Shown: piece after piece, positions 27,189 to 44,633 of the stretch
Layout of the letters: each line of letters opens with the position of its first letter
Position numbering within the stretch: the stretch's first letter is position 1
Source: Giardia intestinalis
Lineage: Eukaryota
Assembly (NCBI GenBank): GCA_000002435.2
Contig: CM018791.1
Length of the DNA: 64,000 nt
Strand: one strand, 5' to 3'
Notes under the pieces: generated by a model
Told to the model about the DNA's origin: nothing
Seen by the model: the letters and a program-made list of their open reading frames with translations, nothing else
The model's database searches: none
Translations under genes and position numbers: made by a program

Positions 27189-29351
27189 ATGTTCCAACTG
27201 ATACCCCTGTTCGTAGCGAGCGCGCTCATGGCGGCCTGCCAGCAAGACGGGAACCACCTGACCACCTGCGCACACGAAAAGTGCGAGACGGTCGGTAGCA
27301 CAGAGATCTGCACCCAGTGCAAGGCCGGAGGCGTCCCGGTCGACGGTTTCTGCCGGCCCTTCGGCTCCCCCCAGGCCGCGGCAGCCGGGTGCACCAAAGC
27401 AGACGGGGCTGCCCTCGACAAGACGGCAACCACCTGCGAGAAGTGCGGCGACGGGTACTTCCTCTTCATGGGCGGGTGCTACAAGACAACCGACGGGCCC
27501 GGCAGCGAGATATGCACAGCAGCCAGTAATGGAGTATGCACTACTTGTAAGGCAGATAACGGCCTGTTCAAGAACCCAGTTACACCTCAGAAGCCTGGTA
27601 GCGAGTGCATCTTGTGCTCCGATACTATAGATAGAAACGGGGTCATGGGAGTCGCTGGATGCTCAGAATGCTCCCACACGGGCACTAGCGGACCGGCCAC
27701 GTGTACAGAGTGTCAAGCAGGGTTCGTTACGAAGGACAGTGCATGTGTGAAGTGCGGAGACGGCTGCTCTGCTTGCTCAGCTGATACTCCGACTCAGTGT
27801 ACCGCCTGCGTTGAGGGGAAGTTCCTGAAGGATGGTAACACTTGTGTAGAGGCTACTGAATGTGGTGCTGATAAGTACGCAGACAAGAAGACCTGGACCT
27901 GCAAGGCATGTGATCCCGACATAGCTGGGTGCACCGCATGTGAATATAATGATGCCACGGGGAAGCCAAGGTGCACCAACTGCGGGACCAATAAGACCCC
28001 CAGGACGACCCTTGATGGGACCTCGACCTGTGTGACAAAAGACTACGCTGGATGTAAAGGCGCTGACGGGGCCCTATTTATGAAGGAGGACAAAACATGT
28101 GTTTTATGCAGTACCGTTTCAGCTGGAGCCGATCCAAATGACCAGGGCATTGCCGGGTGTAAGAAGTGTACCAAGGACTCGGCGACACCGCCAACCTGCT
28201 CGGAGTGCCTCGACGGATATTACAATAGCGCAACTGGTGGTAGTGGTACGGCTACATGTGAAGCTTGTGGTGATAATTGTGCCACCTGTGCTAAGGATAC
28301 AAAAGACCAATGCATGACCTGTAAGCCCGGGTTCTTCATGAAAGGTAGTGGTCCTGGCACATGCGTCCCCTGTGATGACCAAACAGATGGAGTGCCTGGC
28401 TGTGCAACGTGCACCTTCTCTAGCTCGTTGACCTGCAACTCCTGTAAGCCCAACTACAAGCAGAGTGGTACCGGTCCTTTTACATGCACCAAGACTTGTG
28501 AAGACCCCACTGCCTGCGGGGGCACTTCTGGTGCCTGCGATGCCATGATAATTGATGATCAGGGCACCACAAAGCACTACTGTTCCTACTGTGGAGAGAC
28601 CAATAAGATACCAATTGATGGGAAGTGTGTTGATAGTGGTAGTATAAATGGTAATACTTGTGCTAAAGGTGTATGTACACAGTGTGCTCAAGGATACTTC
28701 TTATACATGGGAGGCTGTTATAAGGTAGCAAGTCCACCCGGTAACCTCATGTGCACTGAAGCAACAACAGCTGGTGTCTGTGATACACCCAATGCCAATA
28801 ATAAGTACTTCGTAGTCCCAGAAGCAAAGCCTACTCAACAGTCTGTGTTGGCTTGTGGTAACCCCCTGGGCACACTAGTAGGCACTGATAGTACCGCTAA
28901 GGCATATGTGGGGGTGGATGGCTGCTCCCAGTGTACAGCCCCAACAGCTCCATCTGAGGGTGGCATGACTGCCGCCACGTGCACAGCGTGTACCAACAAC
29001 AACAAGCCCAACCTGGCTGGGAGCGGGTGCTTCCCATGTACCGTTAGTGGATGCTCGCACTGCAACAGGGATGACATGTGCGAGGCATGCAGTAGTGGTA
29101 AGAAGGTGAGCCCTGGAAGGAAGTCATGCGTGGATAGCTGCCCCAGCAACTCCACTGATGATAACTCTGTCTGTGTGTGCAACGATGGATATAGCCCTGA
29201 CAGCAGTGGGACCTCCTGTGTGTCCTCTGGCGCCAACAGGAGCGGCCTCAGCACAGGGGCCATCGCGGGGATCGCCGTCGCCGTGGTCGTCGTTGTGGGG
29301 GGCCTCGTGGGCTTCCTCTGCTGGTGGTTCATATGTAGAGGGAAGGCGTGA
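27189..29351 (+). CDS. vsp: variant-specific surface protein (VSP), full-length head gene of the tandem array
   Basis: Genuine ATG at 27189 (track ORF 27000 starts at a GTG). Signal peptide is MFQLIPLFVASALMAA. The protein is 720 aa, Cys-rich with CXXC and GGCY motifs, ending ...GAIAGIAVAVVVVVGGLVGFLCWWFICRGKA* with stop at 29349-29351. Confidence 0.85.
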   Translation: MFQLIPLFVASALMAACQQDGNHLTTCAHEKCETVGSTEICTQCKAGGVPVDGFCRPFGSPQAAAAGCTKADGAALDKTATTCEKCGDGYFLFMGGCYKTTDGPGSEICTAASNGVCTTCKADNGLFKNPVTPQKPGSECILCSDTIDRNGVMGVAGCSECSHTGTSGPATCTECQAGFVTKDSACVKCGDGCSACSADTPTQCTACVEGKFLKDGNTCVEATECGADKYADKKTWTCKACDPDIAGCTACEYNDATGKPRCTNCGTNKTPRTTLDGTSTCVTKDYAGCKGADGALFMKEDKTCVLCSTVSAGADPNDQGIAGCKKCTKDSATPPTCSECLDGYYNSATGGSGTATCEACGDNCATCAKDTKDQCMTCKPGFFMKGSGPGTCVPCDDQTDGVPGCATCTFSSSLTCNSCKPNYKQSGTGPFTCTKTCEDPTACGGTSGACDAMIIDDQGTTKHYCSYCGETNKIPIDGKCVDSGSINGNTCAKGVCTQCAQGYFLYMGGCYKVASPPGNLMCTEATTAGVCDTPNANNKYFVVPEAKPTQQSVLACGNPLGTLVGTDSTAKAYVGVDGCSQCTAPTAPSEGGMTAATCTACTNNNKPNLAGSGCFPCTVSGCSHCNRDDMCEACSSGKKVSPGRKSCVDSCPSNSTDDNSVCVCNDGYSPDSSGTSCVSSGANRSGLSTGAIAGIAVAVVVVVGGLVGFLCWWFICRGKA

Positions 29352-29365
29352 CTTAGGTAGTGAAT
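29351..29365 (+). promoter_or_regulatory. VSP extended poly(A) signal ACTTAGGTAGTGAAT (overlaps the TGA stop)
   Basis: Matches ACTYAGRTAGTRAAY. The identical signal follows every array unit at 31308-31322, 33214-33228, 35168-35182, 37069-37083, 40791-40805 and 42748-42762. Confidence 0.7.
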
Positions 29366-29373
29366 GCTGTACA

Positions 29374-42748: not shown

Positions 42749-42827
42749 CTTAGGTAGTGAATGCTGTACAATGTGTGATAGAAGGTGATAGTGGGTGATA
42801 ATGGGTGATAGAGGGTGATAGTGGAGT

Positions 42828-44633
42828 GTGATATGCACAAAGGCTGAGGGAGGAGTGTGCACTGCTTGTAAGGCAGATAACGGCCTGTTCAAGAACCCAG
42901 TTACACCTCAGAAGCCTGGTGGGGAGTGCATACTGTGCTCTGATATCAAGGGAGCAGATGGATATACGGGGGTGGCTAACTGCGCACAGTGTACCAAGTC
43001 AGACAGTAGTCCAGGAGCAGCCACGTGTAGTACCTGCAGAGATGGATACTACATGGACTCTCAGGCATGTGTCAAATGTAATGACGCTTGTCTGACCTGC
43101 GATGGAAGTGGTCCGAATCAGTGTACATCGTGCCCAGAGGGGAAGTACCTGAAGACTGACAAGTCATGCGTGAATAATAATGGATGCACTGGAAACACTT
43201 ATGCTGACCCTGTGACAATGACCTGCAAGGATTCTGCAATAACTGATTGCACCACGTGTGAGTACAATGCGACCGTCAGTAAGCCCCAGTGCACCGCCTG
43301 TAATAACAATAAGAAGGTGAAGACGGCCATCGACGGCACCACGACATGTGTTACTGTTACATCCGATTGCGTAGACGAGAATCACTTCAAGGCAGATGAT
43401 GACTCAGCTTGTTATCTATGTAGTGATACAACAGGAACAGACCCAAATAAAGGAGTGGCTAATTGTGCAACCTGTACTGCAGCACAACAATGCACTAAGT
43501 GCCTTCCGGGCTTCTTTAAGACTAGTGCTACAGCTTGTGATGCTTGTGGTGATAACTGTGCCACATGTTCTGTTGCTGGTGATCCAAATAAGTGTGAAAC
43601 CTGCAAGACTGGATACTTCTTGGTAACTACTACAGATCCACAGGGGAAGAAGTGTGTCCCCTGTGACAGTACAACAGATGGTGGCCGCGAAGGCTGCAGT
43701 GTCTGCTCTAGCAACGGTGGATTCAAGTGCACTGAATGTAAGCCCAACTATAAGAAGCAGTCCAATGGTGATGCGGGGGATGACTATACATGTGTGAAGA
43801 CCTGCGAGGACCCCACGGCTTGTGGTGGTACTTCTGGCGCCTGTGATGCCATCGTAATCGACAACACAGGGAAGGAGCTTCACTACTGTTCTTACTGTGG
43901 AAAGGACAGTGAGTTCCCTATTGATGGTATATGTAATAGTGATAAAGGAACTAATCAATGTAATCAAGGTGTATGTACATCATGTACTACGGGGTACTTT
44001 ATGTACATGAATGGTTGTTACAAGGTGACAGAGGTGCCGGGTAAGTCCATGTGCACAAAGGCAGGTGATGGTGTCTGCACAGAGGCGGCAGCTGGGTACT
44101 TCATCCCTCCCTCGCCCACCAAGGACAAGCAGTCTGTCCTCTCCTGTGGGAACCCCCTTGGGGTCGAGCTGGCTGGCCAGAAGGCATACGTAGGAGTAGA
44201 TGGCTGTTCACAGTGTACAGCACCAAAACAGCTAGAGGCTCCTGGCATGACTCCTGCTATATGTACCTCTTGTGACAGTAGTAAGAAGCCCAACAGGGAT
44301 GGCAGTGGGTGCTTCCCATGTACCGTTAGTGGATGCTCGCACTGTGATATGGACAACATGTGCGAGGCATGCAGTAGTGGTAAGAAGGTGAGCCCTGGAA
44401 GGAAGTCATGCGTGGATAGCTGCCCCAGCAACTCCACTGATGATAACTCTGTCTGTGTGTGCAACGATGGATATAGCCCTGACAGCAGTGGGACCTCCTG
44501 TGTGTCCTCTGGCGCCAACAGGAGCGGCCTCAGCACAGGGGCCATCGCGGGGATCTCCGTCGCTGTGGTCGTCGTCGTGGGGGGCCTCGTCGGCTTCCTC
44601 TGCTGGTGGTTCGTGTGCAGGGGGAAGGCGTAG
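42828..44633 (+). pseudogene. 5'-truncated VSP copy, unit I (beta-type 5' half, E-like 3' half); last unit of the array
   Basis: GTG track start with no signal peptide. Ends WWFVCRGKA* (TAG at 44631-44633), followed by ACTTAGctgtgt and the canonical ACTTAGGTAGTAAAC at 44646-44660. Confidence 0.6.

Follow-up and report, generated by a model that had tools for sequence, protein, structure and literature searches.

A linear array of nine VSP units in Giardia intestinalis WB with a patchwork suggestive of repeated recombination

Much of the antigen-gene repertoire of Giardia lies in VSP arrays, and the field itself has raised the question of whether silent units feed new coat variants. The locus described here occupies positions 27189-44633 of a 64,000-nucleotide stretch of Giardia intestinalis WB (contig CM018791.1, assembly GCA_000002435.2), which we call the window, and consists of nine head-to-tail VSP units, all on the plus strand. 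How did their patchwork of shared blocks arise, and does the array do anything with it?

The nine units were all matched by the PF03302 profile (106-148 bits against a curated cut-off of 31.4), with E = 1.5e-40 for unit A and E = 2e-34 for unit B. Each unit has 25-28 CXXC motifs and a Cys content of 11.7-12.2%, and each ends in ...GFLCWWF(I/V)CRGKA followed by a stop. The unit A protein is 100% identical to an annotated G. intestinalis WB VSP across 720 aa, and the GC-rich stretch upstream of it has no Pfam match. A linear vsp array, as described by Adam (2010, BMC Genomics 11:424; PMC2996952), has at least two adjacent head-to-tail units separated by 60 bp on average and by up to 241 bp, and an Inr on first members only. 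In the window, the gap from a stop to the VSP body that follows is ~80-100 nt. TAATGTT is present at 27187, around the start codon of unit A, and no PyAATGTT was found in units B-I (29352-44633 scanned). To be functional, a VSP needs a proper start codon as well as a signal peptide at its N-terminus (Xu 2020; Rodriguez-Walker 2022); only unit A has both, with the signal peptide called by eye, without a predictor.

Each of units B-I is preceded by a stop, by the polyA signal AGTGAAT and by a spacer of degenerate (GTGATA)n; the VSP body is entered at about head residue 95-105. Their first residues, right after the spacer, are FMGGCY or (E)ICT, and no hydrophobic N-terminus is present. AGTRAAY is the polyadenylation signal of Giardia. 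Since units B-I lack a signal peptide, such an N-terminus and PyAatgTT, they are ψVSPs and not VSP genes. Their frames are nevertheless open for 573-623 codons (623 in unit B), with no in-frame stops and no uncompensated frameshifts. One (GTGATA)n-like spacer is found at each of the eight junctions. It also occurs in an array of the DH isolate (L002), and in older gene models of WB VSPs it forms 'MLYSDSDS...' N-termini. The locus is a linear vsp array with one expression-competent head VSP and eight 5'-truncated pseudo-VSP units that lack an initiator, a start codon and a signal peptide. Coordinates are given in Table 1.

Table 1. Features of the VSP array, in positions of the window
Feature	Position	Strand	Remarks
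Initiator element TAatgTT	27187..27193	+	CTCTAATGTTCC; fits PyAatgTT Inr (PMC2996952); surrounds head ATG at 27189
Unit A (head), full-length VSP gene of 720 aa	27189..29351	+	Signal peptide MFQLIPLFVASALMAAC, 28 CXXC, transmembrane segment, CRGKA tail
Unit B, alpha type, start-less	29352..31308	+	PolyA signal, spacer, body from FMGGCY-NKDAH-PG
Unit C, beta type, start-less	31309..33214	+	Body from (E)ICT; c-type 5' part and b-type block 32417-32798
Unit D, alpha type	33215..35168	+	Near-identical to B and H
Unit E, beta type	35169..37066	+	Unique 5' part, c-type middle, 3' block common with I
Unit F, beta type	37067..38870	+	c-type 5' part, then f-type block
Unit G, beta type	38871..40791	+	5' part unique to 39342, then the head gene's 3' part exactly
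Unit H, alpha type	40792..42748	+	Partner of B at offset 11,440
Unit I, beta type, last	42749..44633	+	As C to 43891, as E at 43314-44176, own 3' block DSSKKPNRDGSGCF...DMDN
Segment copy 1 (A-3', B, C-5')	27903..32451	+	4,549 bp, duplicated or converted
Segment copy 2 (G-3', H, I-5')	39343..43891	+	Offset from copy 1 by 11,440 bp, downstream; 27 clustered differences
PolyA-signal consensus AGTGAAT after unit A	29359..29365	+	8 nt past stop
AGTGAAT after the stops of B-H	31316, 33222, 35176, 37077, 38878, 40799, 42756	+	
AGTAAAC after unit I	44654		PolyA-signal consensus
Degenerate (GTGATA)n-like spacer	29366..29436	+	Links unit 3' flank to next truncated body
Variable loop between GGCY and PG, unit B	29455..29469	+	
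Loop counterparts	A 27483-27497, D 33318-33329, H 40895-40909	+	

The first-pass annotation had described units that share blocks in different combinations, and the alignments bear this out. Units B, D and H have a common 5' half, exact over 1,445-1,757 nt, and units C, F and I have another, exact over 698-1,143 nt. The C-terminal variants (NNNK/DNSKK/DSSKK, STDDNS/STDTDS, IAVAV/ISVAV and FICRGKA/FVCRGKA) are shuffled into seven combinations among the nine units. Different unit pairs share tracts without a single mismatch, 27 in number and 200-1,757 nt long, with sharp edges. D 33330-35086 is identical to H 40910-42666 over 1,757 nt, and B and D share 1,445 exact nt. The exchange includes the head gene: A 27903-29191 is the same as G 39343-40631 over 1,289 nt, and A 28959-29269 is the same as B 30916-31226. 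Unit E is exact with C at 35747-36324 (31874-32451 in C) and with I at 35747-36609 (43314-44176 in I), and F 37245-37942 equals both C 31484-32181 and I 42924-43621. Single units change partners along their length. Unit I follows C to alignment column 1518 and E over columns 899-1827, unit C leaves the C/E/I type for the B/D/H type within a 35-nt stretch common to both, and the partitions of the nine units change at no fewer than 12 alignment positions.

Blocks are also shared beyond the array. VSP models from other WB loci have exact blocks of 113-200 aa in common with it; the f-type block of unit F equals one such model (XP_001705784) across 200 aa, and the 'VSP S7' entry shares an exact block of 137 aa. 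The models XP_001707661, XP_001705783/4 and XP_001703902 were considered as array units and set aside: they are 65-76% identical overall, with exact blocks only, and hence belong to other loci. A divergent VSP at 18649-20835 on the minus strand was also dismissed as a relative of the array, with zero nucleotide similarity to it.

A block pattern could result from ordinary divergence, without recombination, if some segments of the protein were under strong purifying selection. The conserved C-terminal region, GGCY and CXXC do add some short shared runs near the 3' end. We give this explanation practically no credence. All three codon positions, including synonymous positions, are 100% identical inside the tracts, whereas third-position identity just outside is 47-60%. 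This abutment excludes uniform divergence and selective conservation alike, and the codon-position test thus refutes selection as the cause of the blocks. Also, one and the same segment can be identical in one unit pair and 30-40% diverged in another. Compatibility between sites depends strongly on position, with a PHI statistic of 0.088 compared to 0.2015 ± 0.0026 after permutation (0 of 2,000 column permutations as low). A GENECONV-like run test gave p = 0.001, the floor set by its 1,000 permutations, in 35 of 36 pairs, and p = 0.006 for FG. These permutation tests reject tract-free divergence. In the divergent blocks, third positions differ more than first and second positions, so these blocks evolved as coding sequence.

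The patchwork of this linear vsp array very probably stems from repeated homologous recombination among its units. Units would be mosaics because recombination repeatedly copied stretches from one unit to another, probably by non-reciprocal gene conversion with some unequal crossing-over, in tracts of tens of bases to ~4.5 kb. Both processes had been put forward in the first-pass annotation, and the tract edges, partition changes and clustered differences support them well. Significant GENECONV results and 'long regions of 100% identity' are described for vsp genes by Adam (2010; PMC2996952), and gene-conversion events in assemblage A are reported as VSP-enriched with a median of 3.3 kb (PMC12669663).

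The largest shared segment had been taken for an 11,440-bp higher-order repeat. In the single assembly on which both copies and the exactness of the tracts rest, 27905-32440 and 39345-43880 show 27 ungapped mismatches in 4,536 nt (99.4%) at an offset of 11,440, and their ORFs are displaced by exactly this distance (29158/40598, 29395/40835, 30678/42118 and 31388/42828). The pair contains the 3'-terminal 1.45 kb of the head gene, all of B and the 5'-terminal 1.14 kb of C, corresponding to the 3' part of G, all of H and the 5' part of I. Its periodicity did not hold up. Beyond 27903-32451, identity at this offset is ~25%, and the identity of B and H (98.7%) does not stand above that of B and D (98.6%) or D and H (99.6%). 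There is a single pair of 4.5-kb segments with 6.9 kb of unrepeated array between them. The pair is one duplicated or converted 4.5-kb segment.

Small patches do differ within the pair. The 27 differences fall into 5 of 46 bins of 100 bp, compared to ~20.6 bins expected. Patches specific to each copy include NKDAH versus KAGQD in the loop after GGCY, and 31116-31239 versus 42556-42679. Outside the loop patch lie 17 differences, each with its two states represented among other units, which patchy conversion predicts and point mutation does not; no private point mutation was found in this part of the pair. The pair probably represents the largest and most recent event in the array. It could have arisen as one long conversion or duplication tract or as a few contiguous ones, copied from A-3'/B/C-5' to G-3'/H/I-5' or in reverse, and neither the number of events nor this direction can be uniquely reconstructed. 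Other units would later have overwritten short patches. The sole directional clue comes from the A/G boundary: A and VSP S7 both have its two flanks as contiguous sequence, and G does not. It favours transfer from the head to unit G. Exchange in the array is recent.

The site after GGCY had been called hypervariable. It does vary, reading KTTDG in A, NKDAH in B, NRTR in D and KAGQD in H. However, the D loop is the H loop minus GG (2 nt) and minus T (1 nt), so that part of the amino-acid variability is a compensated frameshift. The net change of -3 leaves unit D in frame. Other VSPs also carry the NKDAHPG and KTTDGPG versions of the loop.

The array is highly repetitive, and the assembly itself was considered as a source of the pattern: one real copy could have been placed twice, or reads mis-mapped at consensus calling could have homogenised paralogues, and the pair, or the lack of any mismatch in the tracts, would then be an artefact. 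Repeat polishing could also make copies more alike or shift small variant patches between copies. The old Sanger assembly broke at such arrays (Adam 2010, PMC2996952), and apparent allelic variation is elevated around VSPs (Xu 2020, PMC7000408). We found no independent record of units B-I in protein and contig collections. Exact look-ups of the head protein, the H ORF and the G ORF gave no match, the G-specific junction had 0 matches in JGI metagenome contigs, and a protein database search with unit G returned the head gene as the closest entry at 90%, with nothing nearer. We still regard such an artefact as very improbable. The 27 differences form in-frame patches and, outside the loop, match the states of other units, unlike random errors. 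Each copy has its own unique junctions (27903/39343 and 32451/43891), which lie inside open reading frames, and polishing cannot create blocks that are 30-50% apart. The reads reported for the assembly (200x, N50 12.7 kb, 10% of them above 20 kb) are longer than the 4.5-kb repeat and span most of the 17.4-kb array, and the authors of the assembly resolved duplications up to 20 kb (PMC7000408). Judged from these read lengths, an assembly artefact is unlikely.

Other isolates were compared at the same position. The DH locus syntenic to the array, located through the flanking 292-aa gene, contains no VSP, and the array locus is absent at the syntenic site in sub-assemblage AII isolates. It is thus dispensable at that position, and comparison between isolates cannot date the conversion tracts. 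Two DH loci with head-like VSPs (L001 and L002) were rejected as positional orthologues; they are paralogues whose match is limited to the 5' part and 1.2 kb of upstream sequence, at 84-88%.

What the array is for is a separate matter. It may be functionless, decaying debris of tandem duplications, with mosaicism as a passive by-product of homology, and we hold this to be nearly an even proposition. Adam (2010, PMC2996952) offers the alternative that such units are what is left of vsp genes that were discarded, ψVSPs of G. muris are described as untranscribed (Xu 2020, mgen000402), and the locus is missing from the AII syntenic site. Decay fits poorly with the silent units, none of which (0 of 8) has an in-frame stop or an uncompensated frameshift, and with the circulation of blocks between the array and other loci.

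Another possible explanation, although a doubtful one, is that the array is an active cassette system whose silent units are kept as donors, with segments of them transferred to the head gene or to expressed VSPs at distant loci. New antigens would then arise at the DNA level, much as in trypanosome VSG mosaics or Borrelia vlsE. This cassette hypothesis was put forward by Adam (2010, PMC2996952), and by Xu (2020) for G. muris. The combination of one promoter-bearing gene with eight start-less units in intact frames agrees with it, as do the divergent blocks that evolved as coding sequence, the compensated frameshift that holds unit D in frame, and the exact tract common to the head and unit G. 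However, the directional clue runs from the head to G and not into the head, and the open frames may just reflect young copies. VSP switching in Giardia is also attributed to epigenetic or post-transcriptional (RNA-based) control, without DNA rearrangement. In addition, conserved VSP genes are reported in WB and beaver AI isolates (PMC11169602). It is rather unlikely that the array is a working DNA-level diversifier in which segments move between silent units and the promoter-bearing head on short time scales. If it were, the mutation-free 1,289-nt head/G tract, the intact silent frames and the compensated frameshift of unit D would be its footprints, and a parasite thought purely epigenetic in its coat variation would also make new VSPs by mosaic gene conversion.

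Adam (2010) and Xu (2020) have already published linear vsp/ψVSP arrays with their start-less members and recombination, as well as the cassette hypothesis, so this array adds no new principle. Its mosaic map at base level, the 4,549-bp pair at offset 11,440 and the loop with the compensated frameshift do not appear in the array descriptions of these two papers as available to us; they are particulars of a single array. The array is a clean example, with mutation-free conversion tracts to 4.5 kb, an expression-competent head that is involved, and an AII syntenic site without the locus. In practice it can serve as a well-mapped locus on which to test VSP recombination with long reads.

The array does not differ in kind from the WB linear vsp/ψVSP arrays described previously (Adam 2010; Xu 2020, Sci Data 7:38), and the window comes from the same strain and almost certainly from the same reference assembly. 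The published arrays are likewise head-to-tail with short spacers, with an extended upstream region and an Inr at the first member. Their downstream members retain the CRGKA tail but have no Inr, no proper start and no signal peptide, and the members share long stretches of 100% identity, with statistical evidence of recombination. In the ψVSP arrays of Giardia muris (Xu 2020, Microb Genom 6:mgen000402), recombination or segmental gene conversion likewise swaps sequence between pseudogenised and intact VSPs, but these arrays are described as telomere-adjacent and apart from intact genes, whereas the WB array is chromosome-internal in the window and has an intact VSP at its head. As in higher-order repeats, several monomers (six units, 11,440 bp) part two near-identical segments; unlike in such repeats, only 4.5 of the 11.4-kb period is repeated, in two copies, and the 6.9 kb between has no partner.

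Trypanosoma brucei VSG, Borrelia vlsE/vls and Neisseria pilE/pilS likewise combine an expression-competent gene with promoter-less, 5'-truncated homologues, and in these systems, as in the WB array, mosaics combine segments that come from several donors. In those systems, experiments have shown directional conversion into the expression site in the course of infection, whereas the WB array offers a static exact head/G tract. We know of no demonstration of transfer from a silent unit to an expressed gene in Giardia. With 133 intact VSP genes reported genome-wide in WB (PMC7000408), there is no single expression site, though the local anatomy of the array fits a cassette layout.

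Nine units, A to I, make up the VSP array at 27189-44633. All nine long + strand ORFs in 27,000-44,633 end in ...CWWF(I/V)CRGKA, the VSP signature tail, and all nine matched Pfam PF03302 well over cut-off in a profile search. The units are 1.8-2.2 kb long, lie head-to-tail and are delimited by their stops. A polyA-signal consensus is found at most about 25 nt 3' of each stop (AGTGAAT for A-H, AGTAAAC for I). The one complete gene is unit A, whose ATG at 27189 lies within CTCTAATGTTCC, in agreement with the PyAatgTT initiator, and which encodes the hydrophobic signal peptide MFQLIPLFVASALMAAC. 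Over 720 residues, the product of this head ORF (27189-29351) shows 100% identity to an annotated 'VSP' protein from G. intestinalis (syn. lamblia, duodenalis) ATCC 50803 / WB. A motif search found no PyAATGTT in 29352-44633, and therefore units B-I have no initiator, proper start or signal peptide. These ψVSPs are each open throughout, over 573-623 codons, and contain 25-26 CXXC motifs.

At the junctions between units, the polyA signal is followed by a degenerate (GTGATA)n-like spacer. Directly after it comes the VSP body, entered at FMGGCY (head residue 92) in the alpha type (units B, D and H) and at (E)ICT (about head residue 105) in the beta type (units C, E, F, G and I). The spacer resembles GTGAGATATGCACA, with which the VSP body begins, and in another frame it gives the 'MLYSDSDS...' N-termini of some old WB gene models. 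The same spacer type is present in an array (L002) of the AII isolate DH, and it is conserved across arrays, in AI and AII. Its presence in both the DH array and the old WB models marks the truncated unit with its spacer as an old module common to many arrays.

The nine units were aligned with MAFFT, and overall identities and a 60-column partition map were derived from the alignment. Overall identity lies at 65-70% for unrelated units and at 98.6-99.6% within the B/D/H group; it is 91.6% between A and G, and 91.1% between C and I. The grouping of the units shifts along the alignment, as seen in the table for four partitions, and becomes even finer toward the 3' end. Among the nine units, 27 pairwise tracts of at least 200 nt are exactly identical. 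Tract edges are sharp; for example, unit C passes from the C/E/I type to the B/D/H type within a 35-nt common stretch (columns 1484-1518). The C-terminal variants listed in the first-pass annotation do occur in different combinations, seven across the nine units.

Units, partitions and identical tracts of the VSP array, and genes inside the upstream inverted repeat
Feature	Coordinates or grouping	Strand	Length (nt)
Stops (ORF ends) of units A-I	29351, 31308, 33214, 35168, 37066, 38870, 40791, 42748, 44633	+	
Spacer, degenerate (GTGATA)n run (and seven other inter-unit spacers)	29366-29436; counterpart L002 12113-12230		
Partition 1 (5'-most)	{A}{B,D,H}{C,F,I}{E}{G}		
Partition 2	{A,G}{B,D,H}{C,E,F,I}		
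Partition 3	{A,G}{B,D,H}{C,E,I}{F}		
Partition 4	{A,G}{B,C,D,H}{E,I}{F}		
D-H tract	33330-35086 = 40910-42666		1,757
B-D, B-H tract	29470-30914 = 33330-34774 = 40910-42354		1,445
A-G tract	27903-29191 = 39343-40631		1,289
C-I tract	31309-32451 = 42749-43891		1,143
E-I tract	35747-36609 = 43314-44176		863
C-F tract	31484-32181 = 37245-37942		698
C-E tract	31874-32451 = 35747-36324		578
B-C tract	30511-30892 = 32417-32798		382
NEK/ankyrin kinase	15031-17232	-	
Ankyrin ORF	17545-18294	-	
Divergent VSP	18649-20835	-	

The pairwise homoplasy index was 0.088, compared to 0.2015 +/- 0.0026 after permutation (754 informative sites, 2,000 column permutations), and none of the 2,000 permutations gave a value as low as that observed. 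A GENECONV-like test of the longest concordant run, conducted on polymorphic sites with 1,000 permutations, returned p = 0.001, the floor of the test, for 35 of the 36 pairs and 0.006 for the remaining pair, F and G. The conserved 3' end adds to short runs but cannot explain the long tracts. Within tracts, identity is 100% at codon positions 1, 2 and 3; just outside, the same pair falls to 63-81% at positions 1 and 2 and to 47-60% at position 3. This step excludes both uniform divergence and conservation by selection as sources of the blocks, and the differences between units are block-wise, as had been proposed. The excess of third-position divergence shows that the divergent types of block were coding while they evolved. 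The tracts, the shifting partitions and the permutations confirm the patchwork mosaicism noted in the first-pass annotation, and its reading as repeated gene conversion and unequal crossing-over is supported by the codon-position step, the run tests and the sharp edges.

That annotation had also described 27905-32440 and 39345-43880 as essentially identical at an offset of 11,440. This holds, since only 27 of 4,536 positions differ. The precise bounds of the pair are 27903-32451 (the 3' part of A, B and the 5' part of C) and 39343-43891 (the same for G, H and I); beyond them, on either side, identity at this offset is only about 25%. The 27 differences occupy 5 of 46 100-bp bins, where about 20.6 would be expected, and none of 10,000 random placements was equally clustered. 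Ten of them make up the loop after GGCY. At each of the remaining 17 positions, both alternatives occur among other units, and therefore no private point mutation was seen in the pair outside the loop. The 3' end of B agrees with A, and that of H agrees with D and E. Patches that tell the copies apart are the loop at 29455/40895 (NKDAH versus KAGQD) and 31116-31239 versus 42556-42679. The two copies are very young, and their differences are probably conversion patches.

The pair does not constitute the 11,440-bp higher-order repeat that had been proposed. A periodic repeat was rejected since the copies number only two, the 6.9 kb that separates them lacks a partner, and identity between B and H is not above that of B-D or D-H. 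One long conversion or duplication tract would be the simplest reading, and several contiguous tracts would also fit. Unit I could also be read as a C/E hybrid from unequal exchange inside the C/E common block. The history of exchanges admits more than one reconstruction. The length of the pair falls within the 1.8-5.8 kb interquartile range published for assemblage A gene-conversion events (PMC12669663).

It is unlikely that the two copies or the identical tracts are an assembly artefact, given that the differences between the copies are structured and in-frame and that their junctions are unique. The data behind the probable source assembly also speak against it: the available part of its description (PMC7000408) gives 200x PacBio coverage and a 12.7-kb read N50, and duplications of up to 20 kb were resolved according to its authors. 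Polishing might erase or shift a few single-base differences among near-identical copies, but it could not create blocks that differ by 30-50%.

The loop itself is 12-15 nt long; in B, D and H it is preceded by 105 nt and followed by at least 1,445 nt without a difference among the three units. The loop of D, AACAGGACAAGA, is that of H, AAGGCAGGACAAGAT, minus GG and minus T, so NRTR (D) and KAGQD (H) differ by a compensated frameshift, net -3, and not through clustered substitutions. A variable loop is present, as first described, with the D/H part of its 'hypervariability' due to this frameshift. Among 132 proteins retrieved, NKDAHPG (B) recurs in four other VSPs and KTTDGPG (A) in five, suggesting that they behave as circulating alleles of the loop.

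Exact blocks are also shared with XP_001707661 (B/D/H residues 151-290), XP_001705783 (C/F/I residues 88-200) and XP_001705784 (F residues 240-439). Since these proteins are only 65-76% identical overall to the units, they belong to other loci. The head gene is itself a partner in exchange, with its 3' 1,289 nt repeated exactly in unit G and a 311-nt stretch close to its end identical in unit B. Head residues 153-289 are identical to the database entry 'VSP S7' across the A/G boundary at codon 239, a weak indication that the arrangement in A is original and that in G recombinant. The 1.2-kb stretch 5' of the head VSP (26012-27168) is 88% identical to DH L001 8965-10172, which precedes a solitary head-like VSP beside an acyltransferase gene, in another genomic context. 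This match suggests that the head gene moves or duplicates jointly with its upstream region.

The syntenic locus was found through the flanking 292-aa gene (48543-49421, - strand) and recovered from isolate DH (AII) and an independent ENA assembly. Both loci are collinear with the window from 59420 to 48015 (96.3%) and divergent beyond, with the synteny break at 48015. Window 25661-48014 (22.35 kb), the whole array with its GC-rich flanks, is missing there. In its place is about 4.75 kb with an ankyrin gene (L003 11376-16127 in DH, and L004 in the ENA assembly) and no VSP remnant; homology picks up again at a retrotransposon remnant. At this site the array is thus either particular to the AI lineage or lost in AII. 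In assemblage E (P15), the contig stops just past the 292-aa gene.

Upstream of the array lies a large inverted repeat, 11406-14334 / 22675-25660 (97.8% over 2,988 nt, perfect arms of 2,086 and 770 nt), with the NEK/ankyrin kinase, the ankyrin ORF and the divergent VSP of the table between its two halves. GC content is high in its arms, whose ORFs gave no Pfam match. The arms are 87-89% identical to a DH (AII) region bearing an RVT_1 reverse-transcriptase ORF and thus resemble remnants of a retrotransposon. On the other side, a 1,024-aa ORF at 56760-59834 (+) has the polysaccharide lyase family 8 domains Lyase_8, Lyase_8_N and Lyase_8_C and is kept in isolates DH and P15. This family is unusual for a diplomonad, and the ORF is possibly a lateral acquisition. 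GC content is 56-64% at 12001-14000, 22001-28000 and 44001-48000, the flanks of VSP genes, and 45-53% elsewhere in the window. The ORFs of these high-GC stretches gave no Pfam matches, in agreement with the gene-poor areas near VSPs described in the available part of PMC7000408.

The silent units might donate sequence to expressed VSPs. Mosaic exchange within VSP arrays is already known in G. intestinalis, and the earlier reading was correct and careful. In the available portion of Adam et al. (2010, PMC2996952), more than half of the WB vsp genes lie in 'linear arrays' with intergenic regions of 60 bp on average and an Inr on first members only. The same portion reports significant recombination in arrays by GENECONV and pairs of members with lengthy 100%-identical stretches. 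Multi-pVSP arrays are also mentioned by Rodriguez-Walker et al. (2022), and the G. muris genome paper cites an earlier demonstration in G. intestinalis of segmental gene conversion among VSPs and ψVSPs.
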